From a virus (taxonomy: Duplodnaviria > Caudoviricetes): a DNA stretch of 25,416 bases. Below are positions 1,263 through 23,764 of the stretch, in pieces; the stretch's first letter is position 1, and each line of letters begins with the position of its first letter. The notes below the pieces were generated by a model. It searched no databases. It was given only the letters and a program-made list of their open reading frames with translations, and was not told the origin of the DNA. The DNA is taken from positions 1-25,416 of IMG/VR virus record IMGVR_UViG_3300030207_001989. One strand, 5' to 3'. The translations under genes were made by a program, and so were the position numbers.

Positions 1263-4200
1263 CTAAGAAGTAGGTCCTACGTCACTTATAGTTAAAACCC
1301 ATATATTAGCATCAATACAAATCAGATGAGCTGTTTTGTGAGTTTCAAGTGATGCGTGACCAGCAGGAGGTGAACCACCACTTAATGAGTTTAGAGCAAT
1401 GTTACTACCAGCAGCAACTGCTTGATTTATAGTTTGACCTGTATTAGGGGTTATTTGAATTAAAGAGCCACCCGGAACAGTAGACTGATACAGACATCTT
1501 GCTACTATGAAATATTCATCGCCTACTTGAGGGTTTGATGGACAAGTTAATGTTAGGGTAGGAATAGTTGTATTATCAGCTGTAGCCAAGTAACGACTGT
1601 AACTATCAGATAGTGTTTCAGAGGCGCTAGCTGCACCGAGGTCAGTCTTCATTGTTTGCTGAACTGCTAATGTTGAACCAGTGACTGATAAAGAACCTGT
1701 AACTCCTAAGTCACCGTTGACTGTTAAAGATGGTGCACTAAAGTCACCCTTGATAAGTGGAGTGTTACTTTGTGAATTGTTTATGTAAAGTTCATTAGAA
1801 GTTGTACTTGTTGATGAAGGTCCTGCGCTAGGTCCTATTATTACATTACTTCCACCAGTAGTTACATTAATACCTGCACTCTTTCCTATGAAAACGTTAT
1901 TATCACCACCATTATTATTATAACCAGCACTGTGCCCAATAAGAACTGATGATTGTGTAACAGCATCTTGTCCTGCTCCATATCCTATCGCTACGGTATA
2001 ACTATGGTCGGCTAAAATACTACCTGCGAGACGACCTATACCTATATTACCATGACCAGTTGTTACACTGCGTAATGCATCTGAACCTAAACCAACATTG
2101 TAATCCCCTGTAGTTATACTGTATCCAGCTTGGTCTCCTACAAGAACATTTTCTTGACCGCTAGTTATACTTGTCAATGCTTCTGAACCTACACCTACGT
2201 TCTGTAGTGCTGTATGAACTCCTGAATTGTCACCTTTACCTGCTTTATAACCTATGAATGTATTGTAATTACCATGTGGATAGTATCCTGCTTGAAATCC
2301 TACTAAAGTACTTCCAGATGATTCTGAACTAAAACCAGCTAAAGAACCTACAAAAACGTTGTCTGATTGATTATTATCATAACCTGCACTGTGTCCTATC
2401 CCTACATTAGATGTTTGTGTATTGATTAAACGTAATGCATTATCTCCCATAGCTATGTTATAGTCGCCGGTTGTTATATTTTGTAATGCTTGATATCCAA
2501 CACCAACATTACTTGTACCATTTGTAATATCTAATAAAGCACTTGTACCTATACCTATGTTTTTATCTGCTTTACCACTAGCACCCATCAAAGCTTGCCA
2601 GCCAATAGCTACGTTGTGTGTACCATCTTCATTCTCTTGTGCTGCATTAGGACCAATGGCTATTATACCTTGTCCTGTAGTAATACCTTTACCAGCATTT
2701 CTACCTATTGCTACAATTTGAGTTGCAGATGAACCAGATAGGTATGCCTCAGAACCAATAGCTACGTTGTCGTTTGAAGTATTTTTCAATCCTGCAGAGT
2801 TACCTATAAATGTTGTATTGTTATGTGTTGAGCCTGAGAATCCTGCTTGAACACCCAAATGAGTATTACCAGCACCTGTAGTCATTGAGTATGATGTCTG
2901 ATAACCAATTGACGTGTTTGAGTAACCGCTAGTAATGCTTATTGCAGATTGGTATCCCATTGCTACATTTAGTTGAGCTGAAGAACCAGCACTAGCACCA
3001 GATAAAGCTTGATACCCTACAGCTACATTATAATTACCAGAAGGTCTAAAACCAGCTTTGTTACCTACATATACACTACCTGTTGCATTAGCATATGCAC
3101 CTGCTCCATTACCTAAAGCTACAGTTTCTTCAACATTAGTACCACTAACCACCGCAGATTGACCAATAGCTATTGTCTTTTTAGCTCCAGTAGCATTATA
3201 CATAGGTTGATGACCTATAGCCATCACAGAACCATAAGAATGTCCACCCGTTACAGCATAACCAGCAGCATGTCCTACGAAAACCCCAAAAGCACCATAA
3301 ACTCCAGAGGTAGTACCAGCATAATTGTATCCAGCATTTTGACCAATCATTACATTTTCAGCTCCTTTAGTAATATTGTAACCAGCTCGTCCACCAATCA
3401 CAACATTACTTGAACCAGTTGATATTTTTTCTCCAGCTTCTCTACCTATTACTACAAGATTACTAGCACTAGTACCACTATAAGCAGCTTTTCTACCTAT
3501 TACTACATTCTGCACACCTGTTGTATTAGTAAAAGCTGCTGAGCTTCCTATTGCTACTGAGTCTCCAGTACCTGCTGTGGGGTTTGTATTATACGCTGCA
3601 TATCTACCAATAGCAACCATATCGTCACCTTCTTGGTTTTCTTGTAAGGCTGAATGACCTACAGCTACATTGTCTTGTCCAGTTGTGCTACCTGTTGCAG
3701 CATAAGCTCCTATAGCTGTGTTACGAAGACCTGAAGTATTATCATACATTGATAAATAACCTATTGCTACGTTCTCCTCACCTGAAGACACACTCAACAA
3801 TGCTTGTCTTCCTATAGCTACGTTGTTTTGCGCGGTTGTAACCGAACTGTTCCCTTTCATAGCCTCTTCACCAATAGCAATATTGTAGTTACCACGTGGA
3901 CGATACAGTGTCTGTTTTCCAATCGCTACAATACTTCCTCCACCACCATTGTACGCTGCTTCATGTCCCATGACAACAACGCTGTCTGATGTATTTAAAC
4001 CATTTGCTAGGGCGTTGTTTCCTACAACTACATTGTTAGAAGTGGTGAGTCCATACCCAGACTGATAACCTAAGTATACGTTATAACCTCCAGTTTCGTT
4101 TGAGTGTCCTGCTGAGAACCCTACAAAAGTATTCTGTATACCAGAACTATTAGAAAATCCGGCATTCTTACCGAGTGCTACAATAGAACTTGCAGTATTA

Positions 4201-7200
4201 TTAGTTCCAGCTTTATAACCCACTAATGTAGATGCTGTTGCTGTAGATTGTGTATAACCAGCTTGATAACCTATATGTACATTATCTCCACCAGTAGTTA
4301 TACCATATCCTGCCGCATACCCTACAATTGTATTACTATCTCCACCTGCATTACTATACATCGTTGATGAACCAATAGCTACGTTGTAATCACTATCATA
4401 TGATGAATTAGCTCCTTTCATAGCTTCGTAACCCATGGCTACGTTATGACTACCTGACTCTGTTCGATGCATTGCATACATACCTACAGCTGTATTACGT
4501 GTATCACCTTCTACAAATTCCAGCATCGCAGAGTAACCAATAGCAACATTTCTACTTGCAGTGGTACCAGCTTCTAATGCGTATGAACCGAATACTGTAT
4601 TATAATTACCAGTGTTTATATTCTGCCCCGCTAAATATCCTCCAAGTGTATTCTCTATACCGTCAGACAAATCTTTACCTGCTTGATAACCGATAGCGGT
4701 GTTTTTGTCTCCGTCATTGATATTCATCAAAGCTTCTCTACCAATTCCTACGTTTAACTCTGCACTACCTGCAGCTGTACCAAATCCAGCATTGTATCCT
4801 ACCCAAGTATTGTAATTTCCAGTCGGATGATATCCAGATTGATAACCTATAGCTACTCCTCCAGCTCCACCAGACACTTTAGTCATAGCTGACATTCCTA
4901 CAGCTACATTGTAATCATTAGAACCAGTTCGTAACGCATTACTTCCTATACCTACGTTATTATCTCCTGAATGATAAATAGCAGCATTATAACCAACATA
5001 AGTATTGTGACTATGTGTACCAACACTTATTCCTGCTTCCTTACCAATAACTGTGTTTTGTCCTCCTGTGGTTACACCACTTCCAGCTTTACTTCCTACA
5101 GCTACGTTATTAACTCCAGTATTGAGTGTGTACAATGACCTATAACCTATAGCAGTATTATCATCAGCCGTAGTTATATCATCTAATGCACCTATACCCA
5201 AAGCTACATTATTACCTGCATCATTTGTTGTAGAAGAAGGGTTAGTCCCTATATAAATAGAATCGACCTCAGTTAATGCATCAACAAAGTTACCTATAGT
5301 ATCTGTGCCTGTGCCTATTGCTAATTTACCAGAAGATATAGAACCACCAAATGTACCTCCTCCTCCTCCGGCGGCAGAACCATTGTTTGTTAATGCAATG
5401 TCGTTACCGTCATCATCTGTAAAATATAAATTAGTAGGGTCGTCATTTTTAACCCATAAAACTCCCCAAGTATCTACGTGGGTAGGAGCCGAACTCTTTT
5501 CTTGTATCTGTATTGTGTCTACTACACTAATACCTGTAGTAGTTGGTAATGTACTACCACCGAACGCTACCTTACCTGTGAATCTTCCTGTTCCAGCAAC
5601 GTGTAACGTTTCGCCGGGAGTAGTTGATAATCCTATACCGAGGGGATTAACAAAGTAAGAATTCCCGCCTGCTTGTATGTAAGTATCTATATTACCAGCA
5701 CTGTCTTTTTGTCTAAAATAGGAGTTTGCTAATGTTGTCTCGTTGGCACCTCCACCACCTGCACCCTGTATAGTAATTACTTGGTCGTGTGTTGTATCTC
5801 CCCAGTAAGTATATGCAGTTGTACCGGCACCTCCATTCCACGGAATAAATCTAAGATAAGAACTACCTGCGTTTCCATCAAAATCCCAGTAAGCGTTGTT
5901 ATTGTTTATTTTACCAAATGTAGTTCCAGCAGATTTAAAAACAAGATTATTACCAGCATAATCTAAAACAATATCATTAGGGGAGTCTATTGTAAAATCG
6001 TCACTTGAATGAGGAGCTAATACTACGCCATCGCCAAGTGTAACTAAGTTATCTGTTATAGATAGTTGAACAGCGTTAGCTGCTCTAATAGCTAGAGTGT
6101 CAGATGAATGTGTATAATCTAATCCTCCTGCTGCATCTGCACCAGAGTCTCCCATATTAAATTGAGCATAACCATCAGTAGCAGACCGCAGTTGTATTCT
6201 AGAATATGCACCACTATCAGAAGATTGTACTCTTACTTCTTGTGTAGCAGTGCCATTAATATGTAAAGGATAAGATGGTGTGGTTCCTATACCTAATCGA
6301 CCGTTAGCTGTATCTAAAGTCATCTTGGTAGAAGTTGCGTTTTTGAATTTTATATTCTGAGAGTTATCAAATTCCATACTAGCAACAGTAGCATCTCTCA
6401 TCATAAATCTAGGATTACCATCTGCTGCACTATATATTTGATATTCATTGTCAAAGAACATATTCAATGAGTGGTGTGAGTTAAGAACCAAATTGTTGTC
6501 ACCAACAGTGTATAAAGATAAATCCCCAGAACTAGCTCTAATGTTTGCGTTTGCATCTCCAGTAGCTCCAATACTATCAGGGAATACTTCAAGGAAACTA
6601 CCTGCGTCAAAACTACCATCGCTAGCTACTGCCCTAAATCTAACAGAGCGACTAGCACTGTGTACCCAGAAATCAGTATAAGAATCGTTTGGATAAAGGG
6701 CTAAACCTGCACTACCAGATATCATACTATATTGGTTATCACCTGAAACAACAAAGTATGGGTCTATAACTATACTTTTACTACTAACCTCTGCCCTAAT
6801 ATTACCAGCTACGTCTAGTTTTTCAGCAGGTGAAGTTTCACCTATACCTACATTACCACCAGAAAGAATACGCATTCTTTCCGTGTCATTTGTACCAATA
6901 ATTATCGGTGCACTATGATTCGTACCAAAAAGAATACCATTACCGGCAGTTGATAGAAGTTCATTATATCCAGCTACTGTTACGCCATATCGAGTAACCG
7001 TTCTAGTATCTGAATGACTCAGAAGCCAACCCACCGCCGTTTGTGATTTAAAATTTAGACCACTATACGAACTTGTTCCGGCGGTAGCGTTTTGTGTTGT
7101 GATAACTAAGGGAGATGTCGAGTCTTTATGTATATCTAATATAGTATCAGGTGAAGTTGTGCCTATACCTACATCACCAGCACCTGTGATTCTCATTCTT

Positions 7201-8285
7201 TCGGTATTATCAGTTGAAAAATTGATATAACCTGCTGCACTCGCGCCTTTTAATTCAATAGTTTTAGTAGCTTTTAATAACATTAAATCAGAAGAATGTG
7301 TATATTGTATATATCCCGGTGAAGAAGCATCTCCATCTCCAAAATTAATTAAACTGTATCCTGTATTAGGGGAAGTAAATTGTAATTGTGCATACGATGA
7401 TGCATCTGATGTTTGAATTTTCACCCCACTAGTTCCATCACTTTTAACGTGTAATGTTTTTTCAGGTGCATTTGTACCTATACCTACACTACCATCTTGT
7501 TTGATTCCTAAAATAGGAGTACTACTTGGGTCTTCACTACCACTCGTCATATAGAACACGTTACCAGATGCACTCATCGAGAAATCTCTACCACTACCAA
7601 AACCTAATACATTAGTACCTTTGAGTTGGAAATACTTTTGAGAAGCAGTTTCAAAAATGATATTATCACCATTAAAGTAAAAGTTACCGTTATCGCGTAA
7701 TGAGACAATAGATTTATTAGTGGAGTTAGCTGTTATATTTAGATAGTTACCGTCAGCTGCAAAATTAAAGTAATTAGAGCCATCGTATGCTAATACTAGT
7801 TGGCGTGTTGTATCGGTTATGGTTGCTCTAGCACTATTTAAAGGTGTATTTGTACCTATACCTACACCAGCAGCTTTGATATTCATAGTGTTTGTATTAC
7901 CAGCGTAAAATCTAATATTGTCAGTCTCGAAACCTAAATAAGTATCTGTATCTCCGTTGTGTACAAGATTGCTACCAAGAAGTAAATTACTAGTCATGGT
8001 CACATTTGTGCCATTATATGTAAAACCTGAGTTACCAGCAAAGGCACCACCATTGTTATATTGTACTTGTGTATCAGAACCACCGGGAGTAGTTGTGCCT
8101 GCTAAAGCACTAAGATTAGCTGTCCATGTAGTGGCTTGTGTAGACCCTGTTAATACATTGTCTCCCCCTAATGTAGCCCCTGTAGTATAATAGTTATTGG
8201 AGGTTCCTCCTCCTCCACTCTCGTTAGTGGCTCTATTGTTAACATTCATTGCTAAACTTTTTAGTAACTTATTATACGATGACAT
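1263..8285 (-). CDS. Giant fibre/spike adhesin, 2340 aa
   Basis: The N-terminal ~950 aa have repeated '(E)RMRIxxxGxVGIGT' fibre motifs. Residues ~1020-2170 are tandem ~14-aa 'NVAIGxxA/NTxVGYxAG' repeats of the YadA-head/Hep-Hag beta-roll type, followed by a short C-terminal beta domain. Confidence 0.8.
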   Translation of the reverse strand: MSSYNKLLKSLAMNVNNRATNESGGGGTSNNYYTTGATLGGDNVLTGSTQATTWTANLSALAGTTTPGGSDTQVQYNNGGAFAGNSGFTYNGTNVTMTSNLLLGSNLVHNGDTDTYLGFETDNIRFYAGNTNTMNIKAAGVGIGTNTPLNSARATITDTTRQLVLAYDGSNYFNFAADGNYLNITANSTNKSIVSLRDNGNFYFNGDNIIFETASQKYFQLKGTNVLGFGSGRDFSMSASGNVFYMTSGSEDPSSTPILGIKQDGSVGIGTNAPEKTLHVKSDGTSGVKIQTSDASSYAQLQFTSPNTGYSLINFGDGDASSPGYIQYTHSSDLMLLKATKTIELKGASAAGYINFSTDNTERMRITGAGDVGIGTTSPDTILDIHKDSTSPLVITTQNATAGTSSYSGLNFKSQTAVGWLLSHSDTRTVTRYGVTVAGYNELLSTAGNGILFGTNHSAPIIIGTNDTERMRILSGGNVGIGETSPAEKLDVAGNIRAEVSSKSIVIDPYFVVSGDNQYSMISGSAGLALYPNDSYTDFWVHSASRSVRFRAVASDGSFDAGSFLEVFPDSIGATGDANANIRASSGDLSLYTVGDNNLVLNSHHSLNMFFDNEYQIYSAADGNPRFMMRDATVASMEFDNSQNIKFKNATSTKMTLDTANGRLGIGTTPSYPLHINGTATQEVRVQSSDSGAYSRIQLRSATDGYAQFNMGDSGADAAGGLDYTHSSDTLAIRAANAVQLSITDNLVTLGDGVVLAPHSSDDFTIDSPNDIVLDYAGNNLVFKSAGTTFGKINNNNAYWDFDGNAGSSYLRFIPWNGGAGTTAYTYWGDTTHDQVITIQGAGGGGANETTLANSYFRQKDSAGNIDTYIQAGGNSYFVNPLGIGLSTTPGETLHVAGTGRFTGKVAFGGSTLPTTTGISVVDTIQIQEKSSAPTHVDTWGVLWVKNDDPTNLYFTDDDGNDIALTNNGSAAGGGGGTFGGSISSGKLAIGTGTDTIGNFVDALTEVDSIYIGTNPSSTTNDAGNNVALGIGALDDITTADDNTAIGYRSLYTLNTGVNNVAVGSKAGSGVTTGGQNTVIGKEAGISVGTHSHNTYVGYNAAIYHSGDNNVGIGSNALRTGSNDYNVAVGMSAMTKVSGGAGGVAIGYQSGYHPTGNYNTWVGYNAGFGTAAGSAELNVGIGREALMNINDGDKNTAIGYQAGKDLSDGIENTLGGYLAGQNINTGNYNTVFGSYALEAGTTASRNVAIGYSAMLEFVEGDTRNTAVGMYAMHRTESGSHNVAMGYEAMKGANSSYDSDYNVAIGSSTMYSNAGGDSNTIVGYAAGYGITTGGDNVHIGYQAGYTQSTATASTLVGYKAGTNNTASSIVALGKNAGFSNSSGIQNTFVGFSAGHSNETGGYNVYLGYQSGYGLTTSNNVVVGNNALANGLNTSDSVVVMGHEAAYNGGGGSIVAIGKQTLYRPRGNYNIAIGEEAMKGNSSVTTAQNNVAIGRQALLSVSSGEENVAIGYLSMYDNTSGLRNTAIGAYAATGSTTGQDNVAVGHSALQENQEGDDMVAIGRYAAYNTNPTAGTGDSVAIGSSAAFTNTTGVQNVVIGRKAAYSGTSASNLVVIGREAGEKISTGSSNVVIGGRAGYNITKGAENVMIGQNAGYNYAGTTSGVYGAFGVFVGHAAGYAVTGGHSYGSVMAIGHQPMYNATGAKKTIAIGQSAVVSGTNVEETVALGNGAGAYANATGSVYVGNKAGFRPSGNYNVAVGYQALSGASAGSSAQLNVAMGYQSAISITSGYSNTSIGYQTSYSMTTGAGNTHLGVQAGFSGSTHNNTTFIGNSAGLKNTSNDNVAIGSEAYLSGSSATQIVAIGRNAGKGITTGQGIIAIGPNAAQENEDGTHNVAIGWQALMGASGKADKNIGIGTSALLDITNGTSNVGVGYQALQNITTGDYNIAMGDNALRLINTQTSNVGIGHSAGYDNNQSDNVFVGSLAGFSSESSGSTLVGFQAGYYPHGNYNTFIGYKAGKGDNSGVHTALQNVGVGSEALTSITSGQENVLVGDQAGYSITTGDYNVGLGSDALRSVTTGHGNIGIGRLAGSILADHSYTVAIGYGAGQDAVTQSSVLIGHSAGYNNNGGDNNVFIGKSAGINVTTGGSNVIIGPSAGPSSTSTTSNELYINNSQSNTPLIKGDFSAPSLTVNGDLGVTGSLSVTGSTLAVQQTMKTDLGAASASETLSDSYSRYLATADNTTIPTLTLTCPSNPQVGDEYFIVARCLYQSTVPGGSLIQITPNTGQTINQAVAAGSNIALNSLSGGSPPAGHASLETHKTAHLICIDANIWVLTISDVGPTS

Positions 8286-9874: not shown

Positions 9875-11140
9875 TTAGTCACCTCTTTTATAGAAAGCTG
9901 GGTTTAGTCTAACTAACCCGTTTTCCATCTTCATACCGAATTCTCTTTTGGTTTCTGGTACTTCACCTTCATCAGATGATTTACCTTTTCCGAAAGAGCG
10001 CTCGACTTCTGCGCTTGGCTCTGGCATTGCTGCTAAAGCGTCGCTAAATCCAGTCAATCTGGATTCATCCCATGCAGAGAGTTCCTCTACACGAGCATCC
10101 TTTTTGTCTTCTTCGATAGTACCGAATAAGATTTCTTTGGATATGATTGCTTCTACTGCTTCAACTTTTCGGGCTTCTGCTTCTTTCTCTAATCTTTCTT
10201 CTTCTGCTTTCTTGAAAGTTTCTAATTCTTTCATAGCTGCTTTAAATTCAGACTCGATTTCTTTCTTAGATGCTTCAGCTGCTTCTAGTTGTGTGCGTAG
10301 AGAAGCGAACTCGCGTTCGACAATGTTCTCTGCCTCGGATTTTACAGTTGTTTCTTTTGTCTCTTCTGACATAATTTCTACCTCTGTCTTCCCGTCTTCA
10401 CATGCACATGCTTCTTCTTCACCACCACAACCACAGTCGTGGTCGTCTTCAGATTTCTGTGCGTCACATTCCTTTCCATCTTCTATAGTACATTCTTTAC
10501 AGACGGGGTCCATTTTTTCATTGTCAATGAAACTTACCTCTGTGGGACGAATGTTGGTGGCGAAAGTGTCACCCATCACATCAATATCGTTTGAAAACCA
10601 ATCGATACTAACATGAGTCATGTCCCCGTCTTTGACTTTGTCCATCACTTCTTGACCGCGACCGTATTTATTAGATACTGTTGCCATCATCTTTACGGCG
10701 GTCTTTCCATTATCCATCTTGATTAGCTCAGGTTTCGTTGCCATGCCGATTAAGTCCTCAGCTGTTCTTTGATGGTCAATATAAATCGGGAGTTCTGAGA
10801 ACTTTTCTAGGTTGTCCTTCAACATACCTCCTTCAATATAAACTTTATGTTGTTCTCCTTCTACCTCATACTCATGAGGTCCGGATGTAATAGCGATTAC
10901 AGGAAACTCCACAGAGTCTATTCCTTCATCACTGGAAAATGTCATCTCATCACCTTCAGCTACATTCATACCGAATGTTCTGCGTGTAGGTTCTGTAGAC
11001 TTACCCTCTGCAAACTCCCGCTCTACGCCATTCTCTTGCGCCCACATGGTACACATGCCAGCTGCAATCTCTTCAGGGTTCTCAAAACCCCTCTTCTTCA
11101 GGTTTGATTTAGTTTGTATCATACATTTTTCAAATGTCAT
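9875..11140 (-). CDS. Prohead protease fused to a Cys-rich linker and a coiled-coil scaffold
   Basis: 'PIYIDH', 'HVSIDW' and 'EVSFID' match the HK97-type protease His/Ser/Glu pattern. The C-terminus is Glu/Lys/Ala-rich coiled coil. ATGA overlap with the portal gene. Confidence 0.8.
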   Translation of the reverse strand: MTFEKCMIQTKSNLKKRGFENPEEIAAGMCTMWAQENGVEREFAEGKSTEPTRRTFGMNVAEGDEMTFSSDEGIDSVEFPVIAITSGPHEYEVEGEQHKVYIEGGMLKDNLEKFSELPIYIDHQRTAEDLIGMATKPELIKMDNGKTAVKMMATVSNKYGRGQEVMDKVKDGDMTHVSIDWFSNDIDVMGDTFATNIRPTEVSFIDNEKMDPVCKECTIEDGKECDAQKSEDDHDCGCGGEEEACACEDGKTEVEIMSEETKETTVKSEAENIVEREFASLRTQLEAAEASKKEIESEFKAAMKELETFKKAEEERLEKEAEARKVEAVEAIISKEILFGTIEEDKKDARVEELSAWDESRLTGFSDALAAMPEPSAEVERSFGKGKSSDEGEVPETKREFGMKMENGLVRLNPAFYKRGD

Positions 11141-12482: not shown

Positions 12483-14150
12483 TTAGAATCCACGTAGAGG
12501 CTGCTTATTCAGTGAAACTTTTCGCCTTGCAGTAGCAAAAAGTGGTCCTTTACTGTGTTGAGAACGATTATTATAATTTTTATTAATAGGGCGTGAAACT
12601 ATAGATTGACCAAAGTTACCAGACATAGGTAACATAGATAATGTAGCATGTACACCCATAGCAGAACTATCACAATAATCATCATGTTTACCTGAAGGTG
12701 CAGCTATTTTTTCTGTTTTTTGTGCAGCATCCATGGTATATTCTAATTCTATGTGTTCTCTAGTCCATTTATGTATAAGTTTAGCATCATCTGGTTCTAA
12801 ATTGTCTGGATTTGGTACTTTTATTCTTCCTTGTTGTATATATGAGACAAAATCTCTGTACATTTGTGTTTTAGTACCTTTAGGACCACCTGTGAAAACG
12901 AAAGCAACGAAATGAACACCAACATCTAAACACGCCATCCGTAAATCTTGTTCAACCGCACCACCAATACCAGTACAATCGACAATAAGACGAGAAGCCC
13001 CAAGCTGAGTGGTAATGTCCATAATACGTTGACGTTGGTATGGGATATCGTGTCCCCCAGTTCTAGCATTGATTTCTTCAATGTATACAAGCCGTGCAAT
13101 ATTTTGCTCATTAGACTTATCAAGGGACCATGCACTAATAACAGTAGAGTTAACAGATTTACCAATGTCAACCCCAACAGTAATGTTGCCTCCTCCCTTG
13201 TGTCCATGTTCATCCAATTTAATAATTTCGTAATCATCATAACACCTTTTTATTTTTTCTGCGTTAAAAACATTCGATACAGACTCTACAAACTCACATT
13301 CGTATTCAGTCCTCCAATAAATGGAGTCTTCACCCCATTCTGTCATTTTATCTAACATTTCTTCTTCAGTGTAAGGTGGTGAGTATGCATCCCCTTTCTT
13401 CACTGCGTCTCTCCATGTATAATGTAATCTAGTAAAAGTATCTGAGTAACCCTCATCATATAAATATCTCCACATATGATTGTCTTTTGACTTGGGTGTG
13501 CCTAAATTAATAAATGGTGCTTTATTAGATACTATAGCGGGTTCAACATTATCAATGAACAGTTTATCGTCGATGAGTGGAGACTCATCAACTACTAAGA
13601 ACGTAGGATGTTGTCCTCGTATAGCTTGTCCTTGATTACTAGGCGCCAACGGAGCTCTTCTCATAACTGTGCCCCCCTTAAGTGTTATGTTGGGCTTATT
13701 ATGAAATCTATAATTCTCTACTAAAGCATTTAGGAAAGTGTTATCAGCAAAGTGTCTATACACGTAATTAAAGATTAATGCTGCTTGGTCTTCTGTAGGA
13801 GCCAGTATAAATACTAAATCCCTAAATCTATTAAAAAACATATATATAGTGACTGCTACTGATAAAGCAAAAGATTTACCACTTCCTCGTGGTGCTAAAA
13901 TTGCTAACTTTTTTTGTTTATCGTCATCTCTTTCTGTTAGACATTCTAAAACTATGTCTTCTTGTAGAGGTCTCAAACGAAGTGGGCGTTGTTTATTATC
14001 AATTAGATACGCAGAACAAAAGGCTCTGACCAATTTGCGCATCTTTTCTTTGTCATTTCTGCACTTTTTAAAAATAAGTTCTAATTGTCTTGAATCTAAT
14101 CCACCTTTACCTGTCAGTAGGTTTTTCAAGTGACTTTTTTCCGTCGTCAT
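12483..14150 (-). CDS. terL: Terminase large subunit
   Basis: Walker A 'APRGSGKS', Walker B 'LVVDE', coupling motif 'LGTP', RNase H-like 'GVDIG' and 'HDDYCDS'. Confidence 0.95.
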   Translation of the reverse strand: MTTEKSHLKNLLTGKGGLDSRQLELIFKKCRNDKEKMRKLVRAFCSAYLIDNKQRPLRLRPLQEDIVLECLTERDDDKQKKLAILAPRGSGKSFALSVAVTIYMFFNRFRDLVFILAPTEDQAALIFNYVYRHFADNTFLNALVENYRFHNKPNITLKGGTVMRRAPLAPSNQGQAIRGQHPTFLVVDESPLIDDKLFIDNVEPAIVSNKAPFINLGTPKSKDNHMWRYLYDEGYSDTFTRLHYTWRDAVKKGDAYSPPYTEEEMLDKMTEWGEDSIYWRTEYECEFVESVSNVFNAEKIKRCYDDYEIIKLDEHGHKGGGNITVGVDIGKSVNSTVISAWSLDKSNEQNIARLVYIEEINARTGGHDIPYQRQRIMDITTQLGASRLIVDCTGIGGAVEQDLRMACLDVGVHFVAFVFTGGPKGTKTQMYRDFVSYIQQGRIKVPNPDNLEPDDAKLIHKWTREHIELEYTMDAAQKTEKIAAPSGKHDDYCDSSAMGVHATLSMLPMSGNFGQSIVSRPINKNYNNRSQHSKGPLFATARRKVSLNKQPLRGF

Positions 14151-18576: not shown

Positions 18577-18590
18577 AGTATATAAAGGTT
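18577..18590 (-). promoter_or_regulatory. TATA promoter, probably giving a leaderless or near-leaderless transcript
   Basis: Minus strand AACCTTTATATACT; the TATA ends about 25 nt before ATG 18554. Confidence 0.7.
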
Positions 18591-18755
18591 GTGGAACCTA
18601 TCTATATTATGCTATGCTATATAGAGCTTATTATATAGGGTTAGTAGTGACCCTATGGTAAATAGCATATTCAAAAAATCACTCGATTTGTTAAACCCCC
18701 TAGACGACGTTTGGCATGGGTGCCCCCTCAGATTTTTAGACGGGGGATAGTGAAA

Positions 18756-18842
18756 GCGCGCCCAAAAAAAATATATTAACGCTTGGCGCCCCAAAAAACG
18801 CGACCGGAACGCCAAAAAGCTCCCCACACGACGCCCAAAAAA
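18756..18842 (+). repeat. Four CGCC(C)-A-tract repeats in the divergence region
   Basis: gcgcgcccAAAAAAAA, ggcgccccAAAAAA, cgccAAAAA and cgcccAAAAAA, with A-tracts starting at 18764, 18793, 18814 and 18837. Confidence 0.7.
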
Positions 18843-18867
18843 TTTTGTCGACGATAGCCCCGACCCC

Positions 18868-18912
18868 AACGCTTATATATAGCGTATACACTGTATTGAC
18901 AGAGGTAAGCAA
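18868..18912 (+). promoter_or_regulatory. First rightward promoter and SD
   Basis: AACGCTTATATATAG...AGAGGT-N6-ATG. Confidence 0.65.
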
Positions 18913-19239
18913 ATGAACGAAAACTATTACATCTATAAATTAGCCAGACAATCAGAAAAGACATCATATCATTTTTATGACATCGAGTCTTTTACACCAT
19001 CTGAGGACAGCATCAGCAAGAACGCTGTATATTACGGACTAACTCAAGACCCGCAATCAAGATTGAGCAAACACCGACCTAAAAAAGGTCATGACATCAG
19101 CTTGATAGTTGTGGCTGAATTTGATAATCCATGGGAAGCTTTAGAACATGAAGCTAAATTGGTAGCTACACACTACCGTGAGTATGGCAGTGAGCCAGAA
19201 CTTCAAGGCATGGCCAACACTGGCCACAGGAGGGCCTAA
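18913..19239 (+). CDS. Stand-alone GIY-YIG-family nuclease domain (108 aa)
   Basis: 'YYIYKL...VYYGLT...RLSKH...ALEHE' follows the GIY-YIG motif order (Y, Y-G, R, H, E). Confidence 0.65.
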   Translation: MNENYYIYKLARQSEKTSYHFYDIESFTPSEDSISKNAVYYGLTQDPQSRLSKHRPKKGHDISLIVVAEFDNPWEALEHEAKLVATHYREYGSEPELQGMANTGHRRA

Positions 19240-19887: not shown

Positions 19888-19934
19888 GTATATATAGCCC
19901 ATTCGCCGGAAAAGAGGGTATATAAAGCCCTCAA

Positions 19935-19957
19935 TTTTTCCACACGTGTGAAAAAAA
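19935..19957. repeat. Palindromic cassette-boundary repeat, copy 1
   Basis: TTTTTCCACACGTGTGAAAAAAA, preceded by the hairpin GAGGG-TATATAAAG-CCCTC. Confidence 0.85.
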
Positions 19958-20093
19958 GCAGCTGGCGCGCCAAAAAACGCGAGCGGGATTTTTTCCTTTA
20001 TATACCCCAATATAGGATTTTAGGGTTCACGACGATAGGCCCCAAGCAAACTAATATATCATCCCTCGCTATAGGTATTATAGAGGTAATCAA

Positions 20094-20207
20094 ATGAAAC
20101 AAATACAAAATTGCGAAGATTGTGGCCTAGAATTTGCCGAGCTATACGGCGGACTGTGTGAAGATTGTGATTCACAAATGTTTATGACATTCTGGACAGG
20201 TGAGTAA
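20094..20207 (+). CDS. C4 Zn-finger microprotein (37 aa)
   Basis: MKQIQNCEDCGLEFAELYGGLCEDCDSQMFMTFWTGE; AGAGGT SD; promoter variant at 20048-20081. Confidence 0.7.
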   Translation: MKQIQNCEDCGLEFAELYGGLCEDCDSQMFMTFWTGE

Positions 20208-20306
20208 ATGAACTGTGAGAATTGTAATAAAGATGTTTCGAAAGTATCATACACACTTTACAACTCAGAACTCTGTTGGGAGTGCTGGGTCGACTTTAGG
20301 GGATAA
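20208..20306 (+). CDS. C4 Zn-finger microprotein (32 aa)
   Basis: MNCENCNKDVSKVSYTLYNSELCWECWVDFRG; AGGTGA SD; abuts the upstream stop codon. Confidence 0.7.
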   Translation: MNCENCNKDVSKVSYTLYNSELCWECWVDFRG

Positions 20307-20347
20307 CCTTATATAGACAGTGCCTATTGGTAATACAGAGGAAAACC
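20305..20347 (+). promoter_or_regulatory. Rightward repeated promoter
   Basis: AACCTTATATAGACAGTGCCTATTGGTAATACAGAGG. Confidence 0.75.
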
Positions 20348-20461
20348 ATGAACACAATACAAATAATGGAAAAGATAGTAAAGGATTGCGACCGAAGAAT
20401 CGCAGAAATAAAATTCAGACAAAATGAATTACTAAGAAAAGGAATGGAGGAAAACGAATGA
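20348..20461 (+). CDS. 37-aa coiled-coil micropeptide
   Basis: MNTIQIMEKIVKDCDRRIAEIKFRQNELLRKGMEENE; GAGGAAAAC leader. Confidence 0.6.
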   Translation: MNTIQIMEKIVKDCDRRIAEIKFRQNELLRKGMEENE

Positions 20462-20529
20462 ACACATACCAAAAATGGTTAATCAGTCACATGGTTAACG
20501 TATCATACGCAACAAGAAAACTAGGATAA
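20458..20529 (+). CDS. 23-aa micropeptide
   Basis: MNTYQKWLISHMVNVSYATRKLG; GGAGG SD and ATGA overlap; shares the GAGGAAAACNNTGAACACA context with the preceding gene. Confidence 0.5.
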   Translation: MNTYQKWLISHMVNVSYATRKLG

Positions 20530-20539
20530 ACAGTTCAAA

Positions 20540-20819
20540 CCTCGAAAGGGTGGGAAGATGAAAATAGCAAAATAGTATTGCACCCACCCCGACGATTATG
20601 TTCCGTGAGTCCCCGAACACTGTAAGATGTGGCCCAAGGAGTAGGCGCACCCAACGGAAAGGGCAAGTGTATGAGTCAGTCTAATAAACTGTCCAGCATC
20701 GGGGACAATAGGAGACGCCTGACAAGTGAAGGCGAAGGGCCGTGCACTTAATGACCGCCCGAACGTTAAACGTAGCGACGTATCTCCAGCCCGGCCGTGC
20801 TGAGGTCAGCCGGGCGCCC
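20540..20819 (+). ncRNA. Candidate structured, multiply pseudoknotted RNA A (~280 nt)
   Basis: GC-enriched and without a credible ORF. Complementary segments: GGGTGGG/CCCACCC, GTCCCCGA/TCGGGGAC, TTCCGT/ACGGAA, GGCCC/GGGCC, AAGTGTAT/GTGCACTT, GGAGA/TCTCC, CGCCT/AGGCG and GCCCGGC/GCCGGGC. Confidence 0.6.
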
Positions 20820-20870
20820 TTTTCCACACGGGTGGAAAAACCTTTATATAGGCAGACCCGTTGGTATATT
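20820..20870 (+). repeat. Palindromic repeat copy 2 fused to a promoter
   Basis: TTTTCCACACGGGTGGAAAAA-CC-TTTATATA-GGCAGACCCGTTGGTATATT-ATG. Confidence 0.85.
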
Positions 20871-21023
20871 ATGACTAGAAAGCATTTTAGAAAGATAGCT
20901 AGCATTCTCAGAGAGAGAAAAGCAGACCCTCTGCTAATAAGGGACTTCGCCAGAATGTGCGCCGGTGAGAATCAATATTTTGATTGGGACCGTTTTTATA
21001 TCGCGGCAGGATTGGAGGAGTAA
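20871..21023 (+). CDS. 50-aa hypothetical protein, leaderless
   Basis: ATG 20871 lies 21 nt after the TATA box and is preferred over the track start 20742: MTRKHFRKIASILRERKADPLLIRDFARMCAGENQYFDWDRFYIAAGLEE. Confidence 0.75.
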   Translation: MTRKHFRKIASILRERKADPLLIRDFARMCAGENQYFDWDRFYIAAGLEE

Positions 21024-21053
21024 AGCTTATATAGGCACACTCATTGGTATACT
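21022..21053 (+). promoter_or_regulatory. Rightward repeated promoter
   Basis: AAAGCTTATATAGGCACACTCATTGGTATACT-ATG. Confidence 0.75.
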
Positions 21054-21263
21054 ATGACAAAAATACAAGACATGAGAAACGACTTTCGTTTCCGCCGAGC
21101 ACCACGCAGAACCCAAACTAAAAACATGGTAGACAAAGGAGTCCTTGACCAATTGACCGCCATCAGAATGGGATTAACAGACGACCCACGTAACCCTTTG
21201 AAGATTGAGGGTGAGGACGAGGAGCAAATGTTCCTACACAATAATGTGAGTGTGTGGGAATGA
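21054..21263 (+). CDS. 69-aa hypothetical protein (basic N-terminus, acidic C-terminus), leaderless
   Basis: The ORF starts at the expected transcription start of the 21022 promoter. Confidence 0.7.
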   Translation: MTKIQDMRNDFRFRRAPRRTQTKNMVDKGVLDQLTAIRMGLTDDPRNPLKIEGEDEEQMFLHNNVSVWE

Positions 21264-21406
21264 GAAGCATCTTAGATATTCTAGACGATATGATTATCTC
21301 TGGTGTGCAAGGAATAGACTACGCAGTTGTATGCGGGTGTGAAGATGCACCCTGCTGTGGCTGTCAGGATACAATATCAGGAGACATGAACCGAGATGAG
21401 TTATAA
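21260..21406 (+). CDS. 48-aa Cys-cluster microprotein (CGCEDAPCCGC)
   Basis: MRSILDILDDMIISGVQGIDYAVVCGCEDAPCCGCQDTISGDMNRDEL; ATGA overlap. Confidence 0.7.
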   Translation: MRSILDILDDMIISGVQGIDYAVVCGCEDAPCCGCQDTISGDMNRDEL

Positions 21407-21470
21407 CACACAAAGGAAAAGAAGCTGGAAGAAAGAAACAAATAAGATTATCAAAAAGGCCAACCAATAG
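21396..21470 (+). CDS. Possible 24-aa basic peptide
   Basis: MSYNTQRKRSWKKETNKIIKKANQ, overlapping the previous gene's end; weak SD. Confidence 0.3.
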   Translation: MSYNTQRKRSWKKETNKIIKKANQ

Positions 21471-21513
21471 CTCGTTTGTTTTCAACCTCTAGGGGGGTAG
21501 GGCCTCCCCCCGC

Positions 21514-21565
21514 TTTTCCACGCGGGTGAAAAAATCTTTATATAGACCCTCACTATTGGTATAAT
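21514..21565 (+). repeat. Palindromic repeat copy 3 fused to a promoter
   Basis: TTTTCCACGCGGGTGAAAAAA-TC-TTTATATA-GACCCTCACTATTGGTATAAT-ATG, preceded by the hairpin GGGGGG-TAGGGCCT-CCCCCC (21492-21511). Confidence 0.85.
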
Positions 21566-21865
21566 ATGACAGAATACAAGGAGTCGAGTGAATATTCACC
21601 AAGCACGAAATACGAAGAATACAAAACAGGCCGAGGTAAAAACCCATGTGGTAAAACTGTAAAGGTTGATAACCCATATGAGATTTACAAGGGCAACGGT
21701 TTTGAATGGAGAGTATTAAAGAAATACCAAATGCCACATATGGAAAAAGCCAATATGTATGCTAGATGGTATTGTGCCGTGAGAAGCCCAATGACTTATG
21801 GTAGTTGGGAATACGGAGACGTCTACGTCCACGACGTCAAGAAATACGGAGAAAGGGTTAAATAG
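21566..21865 (+). CDS. 99-aa Tyr/Trp-rich hypothetical protein, leaderless
   Basis: ATG 22 nt after the TATA box; motifs 'WRVLKKYQ', 'ARWYCAVRSP' and 'WEYGDVY'. Confidence 0.8.
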   Translation: MTEYKESSEYSPSTKYEEYKTGRGKNPCGKTVKVDNPYEIYKGNGFEWRVLKKYQMPHMEKANMYARWYCAVRSPMTYGSWEYGDVYVHDVKKYGERVK

Positions 21866-21885
21866 ACCCTCTCTATTGGTATTAC
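21852..21885 (+). promoter_or_regulatory. Repeated promoter with no downstream ORF (would drive RNA B)
   Basis: AAAGGGTTAAATAGACCCTCTCTATTGGTATTAC, followed by a hairpin instead of an ATG. Confidence 0.7.
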
Positions 21886-22229
21886 AGAGAGAGTTTCAGG
21901 GGCCGAATCCCGACTCTCTCACTTATGGTTATAGACGTATAACATCGTATACGATTAGTGACCTGAGTATTTGAGACCAGAATAGACCATACGCCAGTAG
22001 ACGACAAGCAATAACAAACTCAAGCTGAACAAGTGCTGACCAATCCCTTACCGGTCGATGCGCATCTTAGTTGATTAACGACGTGTAGCTAACATTATGT
22101 ATCACCTTTTGCCTCACTTAGTCCCTGTTATAGACTTCGTCGTCGAAGCTATGAAGTAATTCTCTGCATCTCTTTACGCCCACCTCTCGTGAAGGATATC
22201 CTTTTGATTGGTGGCAGGTCACACCCGGA
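21886..22229 (+). ncRNA. Candidate structured RNA B (~340 nt) with its own promoter
   Basis: 5' hairpin GAGAGAGT/ACTCTCTC, hairpins GTTATA/TATAAC and ATCG/CGAT, long-range GTGACCTG(21958-65)/CAGGTCAC(22215-22), and several internal stems; no ORF. Confidence 0.65.
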
Positions 22230-22281
22230 TTTTCCACTCGTGTGAAAAAAGCTTTATATAGGGTCTCTCTATTGGTAATAC
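22230..22281 (+). repeat. Palindromic repeat copy 4 fused to a promoter
   Basis: TTTTCCACTCGTGTGAAAAAA-GC-TTTATATA-GGGTCTCTCTATTGGTAATAC-ATG. Confidence 0.85.
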
Positions 22282-22518
22282 ATGAGCCAAGCAACTCAAA
22301 CTAAGAGCTCTTTGCCATGGCAAGGAGCAGGAGAGACTGTCGAATACTTCGTAGAAGTCGGCACGACTCCATACGGTAAGTATGGATTATACAAAGAAAT
22401 GATTCCTGTCGGAACAGGAAGCAGAGGAAGACATATGGAAGTTGCCCGTGAGCTTCGTTTGTCAAACCCAGAGGTCTTTGAGAACCTAAACTTAAGACAA
22501 GTCGTCAGCAGGGGATAA
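22282..22518 (+). CDS. 78-aa hypothetical protein, leaderless
   Basis: ATG 22 nt after the TATA box. Confidence 0.75.
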   Translation: MSQATQTKSSLPWQGAGETVEYFVEVGTTPYGKYGLYKEMIPVGTGSRGRHMEVARELRLSNPEVFENLNLRQVVSRG

Positions 22519-22548
22519 GCTTAAGTAGAGCCTCTCTATTGGAGTAGT
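22516..22548 (+). promoter_or_regulatory. Rightward repeated promoter (variant)
   Basis: TAAGCTTAAGTAGAGCCTCTCTATTGGAGTAGT-ATG. Confidence 0.65.
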
Positions 22549-22881
22549 ATGACTAAAGCAAAAATGGATTACCTTTGGGCTCCTAAGTCTGAAGGTGTAG
22601 TAAGCGACATACTAAACCACATTGGTATCATAAAGGTCGGTGAGTCCGACCGATACCCTGCTGGTGTAAAGTATGACACTCTCATCGCAATCTCGGATGT
22701 CATTCATGGCAACGACGATTTCGGTTCGATGGTTGCATCTCGCACTCACGAACTACAAAGCAAACGAGAAACAACACCAAAAGCCCCTTCTGTTGATTCA
22801 GTGGTTGGAGCTTTGGTTACAGGCAGAATGTCTGAAGAAGATTTGAAGAAAGCTATGAAAAAAGCTGGTCTTCTCAAGTAA
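22549..22881 (+). CDS. 110-aa hypothetical protein, leaderless
   Basis: The ORF starts at the expected TSS and has a short helical C-terminus. Confidence 0.75.
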   Translation: MTKAKMDYLWAPKSEGVVSDILNHIGIIKVGESDRYPAGVKYDTLIAISDVIHGNDDFGSMVASRTHELQSKRETTPKAPSVDSVVGALVTGRMSEEDLKKAMKKAGLLK

Positions 22882-22894
22882 GCCAATATATCAA

Positions 22895-23190
22895 GCACCT
22901 GAGCAAGTCAGAAAACTGCTCGCCTTATACTTAAGGAAGTAGCTCTTCCTTATCGGGTATGGCTGAAGAAGTCCGCCACGGACTAAGGCACAGGGCACGC
23001 AAACCAAGAACCGACTGGTGGAGGAATGCGTGACTGGTATGGGTTAATACTGTAGTGGCATAAACCCATTGGAGGTATACAGCAAGGCCTCCTACCCACC
23101 TTACATTGATGCCCCTAGACCATCGTTAACGACGCGAACGAATCGAGATGGAAATGCTTTACCGGCGCCGGTATATAAGTCAGGGGCTCA
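22895..23190 (+). ncRNA. Candidate structured RNA C (~300 nt)
   Basis: Consecutive stems GAGCA/TGCTC, TAAGGAAG/CTTCCTTA, AGTCCG/CGGACT, CACGCA/TGCGTG, ATGGGTT/AACCCAT and GGAGG/CCTCC, then GCCCCT/AGGGGC enclosing CCATC/GATGG and ACCGG/CCGGT; no ORF. Confidence 0.65.
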
Positions 23191-23196
23191 TCTTTA

Positions 23197-23215
23197 TTTT
23201 TCCACGCGTGTGAAA
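23197..23215. repeat. Palindromic repeat copy 5 (no TATA box follows)
   Basis: TTTTTCCACGCGTGTGAAA. Confidence 0.8.
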
Positions 23216-23283
23216 CTTTTTCGCGTCCTCTCAGCTTAGCTCGACTAAGTATTTTTTTTTATCTCAGTAGGGCCTAGGGCCCC

Positions 23284-23407
23284 GTGAGAAAACAACACCT
23301 CAGCACAGTAGGGCAGGGTGAGAAAACAAGTCTCAGCTCAACCTAACCGCTAGGTGAGTTTTTTAGCCCTACTACGCAACGCTCAGGTGAGAAAACAGGG
23401 TGCTCAG
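23284..23407 (+). repeat. Three iteron-like direct repeats GTGAGAAAACA-N3-5-CTCAG
   Basis: Copies start at 23284, 23318 and 23387, followed by an AT-rich tract at about 23520-23700. Confidence 0.75.
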
Positions 23408-23764
23408 TGGGGCTTAACTGAGGTTGGTTCGAAAGCTTTAAAGCTCATCCTCCAAACCGGAACCAGTTCGGGTTCAGTAGAGCGAACTGTGTTCGTGAAA
23501 AGAAAGTAGAGTAAGTAGTTCTCAGTCTATATTATATTATGCTCTATAAAGAATGCTCTACTACGCAAAGCTATACTGAGTAAATTAAGCTTTACTTAGT
23601 TAAGCTCTACTATGCTCTTTACTTACAGCAATAATTAGCATAATAGAGCTATATCTTAATATAGTTAATATAGGGAATACGAACTATATATAGTTTTGCA
23701 TGAAAAAGCACCCCGTTTTTTGTCTCAGTATAGAAATCGTGCGGGGCTCTCAGTCCAACAAGGG

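Follow-up and report, generated by a model that had tools for sequence, protein, structure and literature searches.

A repeated joint of palindrome and TATA promoter as a site of unit gain and loss in the small-gene array of a marine tailed virus

Results

Palindrome array and linked promoters

The window analysed in this study is the whole stretch of 25,416 nucleotides at positions 1 to 25,416 of the IMG/VR virus record IMGVR_UViG_3300030207_001989 (Caudoviricetes). It belongs to a tailed virus genome; terminase, portal and major capsid protein are encoded on the minus strand, and a plus-strand block begins near 18.9 kb. Where the strand switches between structural and replication genes, an array of small protein genes and structured RNAs was found, which is divided into units by five copies of a palindrome (Table 1). 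The internal copies belong to a repeated 50-bp joint of palindrome and TATA promoter, at which relatives gain and lose whole units.

Table 1 Features of the array and its boundaries (window positions; aa, amino acids)
Feature	Position	Strand	Remarks
AT-rich left boundary	18578..18654		diverged inverted copy (65% over 83 columns) of 23610-23691
Palindrome copy 1 with larger joint of different type	19936..19955		bottom-strand TATA-like box ~19918, TTTATATA at 19997; joint type in 12 distinct contexts
Cassette 1 microproteins of 37 aa (Cys-rich), 32 aa, 37 aa, 23 aa	20094..20529	+	plain promoter at 20305; 23-aa open reading frame conserved
RNA A, multi-junction, 5'-end pseudoknot, 3' GC hairpin	20602..20815	+	no Rfam family
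Palindrome copy 2, BRE/TATA (20843-20850), leaderless start	20820..20870	+	
Cassette 2 microproteins of 50, 69, 48, 24 aa	20871..21470	+	plain promoter at 21023
G6/C6 hairpin closing cassette 2	21492..21511	+	
Palindrome copy 3, TATA (21537-21544)	21514..21565	+	relatives hold extra GP88 unit here
99-aa leaderless protein	21566..21865	+	conserved, no family
RNA B, variable leader hairpins, rod-like core 21958-22222	21854..22222	+	own promoter at 21854; no Rfam family
Palindrome copy 4, TATA (22253-22260)	22230..22281	+	
78-aa and 110-aa proteins	22282..22881	+	each with own promoter; no family or fold match
manA RNA (RF01745), part of RNA C	22932..23102	+	51 nt behind stop codon, then last palindrome
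Palindrome copy 5	23198..23217		without promoter, degenerate right arm, extended T-run; likely true terminator
AT-rich right boundary	23610..23691		

With the search pattern TTTTCCAC-N4-GTGGAAAA and <=3 mismatches, five palindromes were detected in the window and none elsewhere in it (starts at 19936, 20820, 21514, 22230 and 23198; in-register spacings of 884, 694, 716 and 968). For 100 shuffles of the window the mean was 0.15 matches and the maximum 2. Thus, the five-copy array claimed in the original prediction, which a model had made from these letters, is confirmed. The starts claimed there were correct for the three internal copies; for copies 1 and 5 one extra T had been included. The conserved core comprises 20 bp. 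The arms of the claimed motif were found as described, but its central CG is present in only 110 of 183 distinct sites of relatives, and copy 5 ends with GTGAAACT and not with four A.

At <=2 mismatches the palindrome was restricted to the array in each of five related records (50-69 kb, including two complete genomes), apart from one site with two mismatches at a contig end. The motif is therefore not scattered. The combined pattern of palindrome and TATA element was found in 18 IMG/VR contigs and in an estimated ~160 metagenome stretches. In total, 72 sequences were mapped, namely the window, the IMG/VR contigs except for a near-duplicate (17 of 18), 52 of 200 fetched metagenome loci (the longest per contig) and two palindrome-free relatives.

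The arms hardly vary among the 183 distinct sites, whereas 28 different 4-mers occur as the spacer; the search patterns favour intact arms, so that the arm invariance is partly built in, but the free spacer and the fixed offset described below are not. The outer spacer bases are complementary in 35 of the 183 sites, compared with 46 expected. Position 16 is A in 144 of the 183, which gives a C-A mismatch if RNA of this strand folds.

Copies 2, 3 and 4 are followed, after the fifth A and 2 nt, by TTTATATA at 20843, 21537 and 22253, and by an ATG after a further gap of 20, 21 and 21 nt, respectively. This arrangement of the internal copies had been predicted, as had the lack of an adjacent TATA promoter at the two outer ones. 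In 142 of 142 promoter-linked palindrome contexts the TATA offset is 24. The promoter consensus is TTTATATAG with an A-rich transcription factor B (TFB) recognition element (BRE) and a leaderless ATG. An A-rich BRE adjoining the TATA box is known from the literature (PMC7289017; statements on cited papers refer here and below to the accessible portions of their texts). The tie between promoter and palindrome holds for the three internal copies; however, the same promoter class also stands palindrome-free ("plain") at four window sites (20305, 21023, 21854 and ~22517). The 91 distinct contexts with a plain promoter keep only the last A of the arm, which indicates that the A-arm doubles as BRE. 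Furthermore, every copy is preceded by a GC stem as predicted (19914-19932, 20789-20815, 21492-21511, the RNA B closing stem ending at 22222 and a predicted long stem at ~23106-23193).

Fixed arms, free spacer and fixed TATA offset together argue for an operator of a dimeric protein at the BRE and not for an RNA hairpin. The half-sites lie about one helical turn apart, as would suit a site read by a protein dimer. This pattern makes the palindrome a likely target of a dimeric regulator.

Other elements were noticed around the joints. A second joint type (window 19914-20093 and 18800-18912; three copies in the related virus L147) consists of a bottom-strand TATA-like box, a palindrome, GCGAGCGGGATT, a TATA box and CGACGATAG. 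Bottom-strand TATA-like boxes also lie shortly before some palindrome copies (window 19918 and 23171; end of the GP88 unit in loci L166 and L190) and could drive antisense RNA. Behind the last palindrome, at 23230-23430, there are a CTCAG/CTGAG cluster and three GTGAGAAA repeats; in relatives such as L116, GTGAGAAA repeats stand ahead of the first palindrome, too.

Gain and loss of units at the joint

The array comparison of relatives showed that optional units lie between two joints. Three of these units, present in 11, 7 and 3 loci, start at the palindrome promoter. The left half of the array reassorts at joints. In the position after RNA A, one of five genes or the other joint type was found (27, 8, 2, 1, 1 and 1 loci); the 50-aa gene accounts for 27 of these loci, the Cys-rich 37-aa gene for 8 and others for 5. 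Behind the G6/C6 hairpin, the 99-aa gene was found in 34 loci and the 210-aa GP88 gene in 10, and one upstream gene has three different successors (13, 5 and 3 loci). On the tree of 29 cassette-4 sequences, presence of the GP88 unit changes four times, as forced by the starred branches.

For three close pairs of loci the breakpoints could be placed. In L190 and L201, which are identical around the GP88 unit over 50/50 nt on the left and 90/90 on the right, the flanks switch within the 20-mer. L137 and L206 (50/50 and 89/90) switch in the A-arm despite unlike spacers, and L181 and L119 (49/50 and 86/90) within palindrome plus TATA. All three clean switches thus fall in the palindrome/TATA block, and the relatives are not simply collinear with breakpoints unrelated to the motif. 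Hence, the predicted recombination point is supported. However, the order of the right array half is fixed, with the 78-aa gene always behind RNA B or the RNA B extension (38 of 38 loci), and single genes also swap between a palindrome promoter and the next plain promoter, which constitutes a second, palindrome-free class of breakpoints. Since genes swap at plain promoters as well, the shared promoter block is the likely substrate, not the dyad alone. In the DNA run X1 one backward joint from 21483 to 20820, as a mini-circle between repeats could give, was detected (short side 31 nt); a GP88-carrying strain with the same promoter also explains this joint.

Neither of the two complete genomes gave a match to the tyrosine or serine recombinase families (PF00589, PF00239), although a host enzyme is possible, and both encode RecU and endonuclease VII-like proteins. 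As no integrase or resolvase was found in these two genomes, exchange by homologous recombination is likely. Adjacent copies have an identical spacer in only 22 of 176 pairs, as opposed to what a site-specific recombination site would show, and inversions were not seen among the mapped loci.

Structured RNAs

Structured non-coding tails had been predicted for three cassettes, and RNA A, RNA B and RNA C were indeed found at unit ends. For RNA A, covariation in 31 distinct sequences supports ten helices; 98.6% of the cells are paired, compared with 88.0% in shuffles, and two-sided changes occur at 19 of 41 pairs, with 12 such changes at one pair of the pseudoknot. The rod of RNA B (26 sequences) shows 99.1% of paired cells versus 91.2% in shuffles and two-sided changes at 17 of 42 pairs. 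The alignments used for this evaluation had also served to derive the two structures, and the shuffle test is inflated by the kinship of the sequences. Single-sequence folding is weak (z = -0.39 for RNA A, -2.39 for RNA B and -1.34 for the manA stretch), and the case for the folds is made by covariation. No Rfam match was obtained for RNAs A and B at E up to 1. Thus, two well-supported folds without a defined Rfam family are available.

RNA C is a structured RNA as claimed; that it contains the Rfam family manA had been overlooked. The covariance model matches the window with 62.6 bits (gathering score 55.2; model positions 1-192) and 7 of 14 related loci scanned with 62.1-69.2 bits. In 19 of 20 sequences manA lies 47-66 nt behind a stop codon, and the remaining one has a mis-called longer open reading frame (ORF). 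The next conserved gene starts 526-657 nt beyond the palindrome that follows manA. Such a location at the end of a transcript, in a virus of archaeal type, speaks against a manA role that is cis-regulatory only. We regard manA, RNA A and RNA B as likely free-standing or 3'-processed RNAs and not as 5' regulatory leaders. RNA B contains an invariant AUCACC, which is unpaired in the consensus fold and, as we assume, resembles the archaeal anti-Shine-Dalgarno end of 16S rRNA.

In two metatranscriptomes of different studies, contigs of ~250-270 nt match RNA B of related strains. One of them spans 21955-22224, so that 6 nt separate its end from copy 4; RNA A and manA are represented by pieces as well. 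These assembled contigs give no strand, ends or level, and the contig depth of a head-module gene at ~10.5-10.8 kb is near that of RNA B (48.2 vs 58.1 in run X20, 12.5 vs 19.2 in X19), so that they are only a weak hint of RNA B expression. None of the RNA contigs among the matches listed crosses a palindrome, which is uninformative. The high-depth contig at window 10500-10804, seen in both metatranscriptomes, lies inside a 421-aa ORF between the portal and capsid genes.

The cassette contents had been described as unrelated, which is largely right, but small leader hairpins are common to RNA A and RNA B units. Such hairpins (window 21887-21919 and 20547-20590) are swapped between these units in L111, L128 and L129. 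Most relatives carry ~100 nt of extra structure behind RNA B, which the window lacks. In a more distant virus (L148, 120-340, minus strand) the 3' core of RNA A was found with a long insertion and with no palindrome in the fetched stretch.

Possible transcription termination

The predicted terminator function differs between the copies. After manA, the T-run comprises at least five T in 22 of 22 contexts, and two U4 tracts, the binding minimum of aCPSF1 (PMC8716108), occur in 15 of 22. For most internal copies the T-run is four long. Two U4 tracts were counted in 8 of 34 contexts after RNA A, in 7 of 22 after the RNA B extension, in 0 of 31 after the G6/C6 hairpin and in 0 of 8 after GP88, where the T-arm is reduced to three T in 7 of 8 contexts and a stem of the G6/C6 type is absent. 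The upstream 45-mers fold at <= -10 kcal/mol in 66% of 126 palindrome-promoter contexts compared with 25% of 91 plain promoters. Hence, the claim applies best to the last copy, whose T-arm likely ends transcription, and weakly to the internal copies, where termination likely rests on the upstream structure. Because the internal T-runs are short and the GP88 end has no hairpin, the palindrome appears to be conserved independently of a terminator.

Boundaries, virus and host

The AT-rich boundaries of the region are self-complementary; in G001 a promoter-like box directed towards the array lies in the right one. Among the longest contigs, as listed for DNA run X1 (<=1 mismatch), the mean depth was 38.4 within 18.66-23.48 kb (7 pieces, 34.1-43.5) and 25.3 outside (7 pieces, 18.3-30.1). 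Among those listed for run X5, one inside piece reached 115.6 compared with 46.7-59.1 for 7 outside. The resulting ratios of ~1.5-fold (X1) and ~2.2-fold (X5, one piece) are contig depths and not copy numbers; the inside has a slightly higher GC content, and modules in common with other strains could add to the depth. A long terminal repeat covering the array is therefore a tentative explanation, which we hold for somewhat doubtful.

The sequencing runs containing the window stretch are mostly marine. Related complete genomes have 67-69 kb; one of 67.3 kb encodes PolB, primase, ribonucleotide reductase, CbbQ plus VWA, RecU and IF-1A. Among the top PDB matches are aIF1A entries for IF-1A and Deep Vent polymerase for PolB. 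Together with promoters of BRE/TATA type with leaderless starts, these matches suggest an archaeal host, for which Poseidoniales are plausible. No named magrovirus (virus of Poseidoniales) is among the matches listed, and no tree with reference genomes was built. The haloarchaeal virus HGTV-1 is the only archaeal virus among 37 terminase matches. In a blastn comparison of the whole array with 50,697 records of cultured phages, only three short matches at chance level were obtained.

A GIY-YIG-like protein, conserved in relatives, leads the plus-strand block (18913-19239), and a 2340-aa tail protein with many 17-residue (51-nt) repeats is encoded at 1263-8285. In the complete relative L370, a translation initiation factor 1A of archaeal type and a protein of the squalene/phytoene synthase family are encoded at 12917-13249 and 7448-8053, respectively. 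Neither tRNA nor tmRNA was found in the window.

Discussion

Taken as a whole, we consider it reasonably probable that the repeated 50-bp joint is the site where whole units are gained and lost, likely by homologous recombination, and that its palindrome is the likely site of a dimeric regulator activating what are likely early archaeal promoters. Transcription by the host RNA polymerase would begin at several TATA promoters in a row, and the output of the first one in each unit would be raised by a dimeric protein on the palindrome, by analogy with known operators upstream of BRE/TATA. Units would end at a folded RNA or hairpin. The repeated block would allow the recombination enzymes of the virus to add, drop and swap units with intact expression signals. 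In the TrmB family, palindromes upstream of BRE/TATA go with activation and those downstream with repression (PMC4158304). Since the palindrome of the array lies upstream, activation rather than repression is suggested.

Several observations weigh against this explanation. The proposed operator has the conservation pattern of a regulator site, but no binding protein was identified: Pfam and PHROGs scans gave no regulator candidate, and among the 35 ORFs of the window and 52 ORFs of the complete relative no helix-turn-helix or ribbon-helix-helix family was found. No TrmB-family protein was seen among the scanned ORFs. The ESM Atlas search with array proteins (best values 0.87 and 0.76) and a profile-free search of representatives (19 matches) returned unnamed proteins without a regulator candidate, and one AlphaFold model of the 110-aa protein (pLDDT 71, pTM 0.47) had no PDB match. 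The regulator may be a host protein. Furthermore, two of the five window copies have no adjacent promoter, plain promoters exist, and the 50-aa gene is preceded by a palindrome promoter in 31 loci and by a plain one in 10. In L223 one promoter, in front of the 99-aa-family gene, lacks the palindrome. The related virus L147, with another unit order, carries a CCTAGG-centred palindrome in its thrice-repeated joint of the first type and not the array palindrome. To these points the partly built-in arm invariance has to be added. Regarding the breakpoints, the three informative close pairs stand beside 18 of 21 carrier comparisons that were unused (truncated carriers or distant loci), and mapped loci are not independent genomes. 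Against the archaeal host stands one IF-1A cluster member labelled as from a bacterial metagenome-assembled genome. In GTDB species genomes the palindrome-plus-TATA pattern had 0 matches (the bare palindrome was not scanned there), and no confirmed relative of the capsid protein was found in them.

The main rival is a repressor site, where the bound dimer would cover the BRE, block TFB and shut off the early units later in infection. The overlap of the A-arm with the BRE position suits this function equally well: the terminal A residues of the right arm fall on the A-rich BRE position, where 91 of 91 plain promoters have an A, and the existence of plain promoters of the same class shows that the palindrome is not needed for promoter formation. 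On the other hand, repressing sites of the TrmB family lie downstream of BRE/TATA and activating ones upstream (PMC4158304), the base-exact spacing in all 142 contexts suggests contact with the TATA-binding protein or TFB, and internal plain promoters would escape repression. A repressor is therefore rather unlikely.

Less probable still is an element that acts mainly as insulator, with the T-arm or a protein roadblock stopping transcription of the upstream unit. In the window, a unit end lies ahead of each of the five copies, but a promoter follows only three of them; the stronger folding of the upstream 45-mers fits as well, and the RNA B contig ending at 22224 is a weak hint in the same direction. 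However, most internal T-runs are four long, and those after GP88 mostly three, which falls short of the two U4 tracts needed by aCPSF1 (PMC8716108). A pure terminator would also leave the conserved right arm and the fixed TATA offset unexplained.

Shuffling of the cassettes by a site-specific recombinase or nuclease with the palindrome as target is very improbable. All three clean breakpoints would fit one cut in the A-arm at positions 17-21. Against this stand the rarely shared spacers of adjacent copies, the exchange between L137 and L206 despite unlike spacers, the two complete genomes without integrase or resolvase match, the absence of inversions from the mapped loci, the conserved order of the right half and the swapping of genes at palindrome-free promoters. 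Finally, binding of a replication-origin or packaging protein in a terminal region, with a secondary promoter link, is hardly credible: the strand switch, the flanking diverged AT-rich inverted repeat, the higher DNA contig depth inside the region and a half-site that presumably resembles DnaA-box and archaeal ORB motifs would agree with it, but the nine-base DnaA-box consensus occurs in only 45 left and 58 right arms of 183, copy number tracks that of the transcription units, and the TATA offset does not vary.

An extension of the preferred explanation, with activation at the joint, appears improbable to us as a whole. The region would be a 5-kb long terminal repeat that a marine archaeal virus delivers first to take over its host, and a single dimeric regulator would switch on recombining microproteins together with three free-standing RNAs. 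These would be a cage-forming manA, the pseudoknotted RNA A and the rod-shaped RNA B, whose invariant, exposed AUCACC would be an anti-Shine-Dalgarno decoy favouring the leaderless early messages of the virus.

The unit exchange described here provides base-level evidence for an archaeal virus, if the host assignment holds, that reshuffles accessory units at a repeated promoter joint, which in the accessible text of a review was only suggested for HGTV-1 (PMC3950731). Furthermore, a sharply defined putative operator is now at hand for a regulator in an uncultured, widespread marine virus group. No description of such an array was found in the magrovirus papers text-searched for repeat, promoter and non-coding terms; supplements and subscription papers were outside this scope, and an earlier description is possible. 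A literature search on structured RNA in marine archaeal viruses retrieved only unrelated papers.

Some known systems resemble single parts of the array. The TrmB-family operator TGM (TATCAC-N5-GTGATA) is likewise a dyad with CAC/GTG inner triplets, for which a position upstream of BRE/TATA accompanies activation, but its spacer is 5 instead of 4 and the outer bases differ, so that it is a lead only (PMC4158304). The manA RNA matches RF01745 over full length above the gathering score. It has been described as a likely 5'-UTR (untranslated region) element of cyanophages and gamma-proteobacteria (PMC2864571). This placement is not found here, where manA lies behind a gene and before a T-rich palindrome. 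For other manA variants, assembly into decamers and a 60-mer cage has been reported (bioRxiv 10.64898/2026.07.01.735769).

For the whole layout, promoter-early stem-loop (PeSL) cassettes of T4-type phages and halovirus repeats had been named as partial precedents. The likeness to PeSL cassettes is evident. In both cases a stem-loop and a strong promoter are repeated in a variable region of small ORFs, and indels and replacements map to the repeat; homologous recombination was proposed for the PeSL cassettes as well (PMC2839356; PMC4122927). The array has the repeated stem-loop/promoter composite between small ORFs, apart from the missing stem after the GP88 unit, and gain, loss and replacement at the repeat. 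In contrast, the sigma70-like promoter of the PeSLs is replaced by an archaeal BRE/TATA with leaderless starts; there are 25 sigma70-like matches (14.4 in shuffles), which at two joints overlap with the TATA boxes. The array has an extra dyad at fixed spacing and structured RNA cargo. Mini-circles and terminator activity belong to the PeSL side in the accessible accounts, while the present case is built on sequence comparison.

The halovirus repeats are a looser match. The Class I intergenic repeats of HF2 are repeated, site-specific promoters of an archaeal virus with positions conserved among relatives; promoter activity was shown by reporter assay, and the upstream alpha motif was dispensable (PMC8707807). 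They are not dyads and are dispersed instead of forming one array, and the accessible text describes neither shuffling nor RNA cargo (PMC8707807). HGTV-1 is a closer archaeal precedent, which had been overlooked. This archaeal tailed virus has small ORFs near the genome end, each headed by a conserved block that comprises an inverted repeat, TATA-like boxes and a leaderless ATG (PMC3950731; KC292026), and its motif was likened to PeSLs in a review (PMC3950731). A reversed TATA-like box also occurs at its joints (KC292026). However, the palindrome of HGTV-1 is a different, GC-rich one that is flanked by two further TATA-like boxes and separated from the promoter TATA downstream by some tens of bases (KC292026), whereas the palindrome of the array abuts the BRE. 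RNA cargo is not mentioned in the accessible text of the review (PMC3950731). Three features are new compared with the literature examined, namely a dyad that directly joins the BRE, breakpoints placed by mapping, and structured RNAs as cargo, with manA located at the transcript end.

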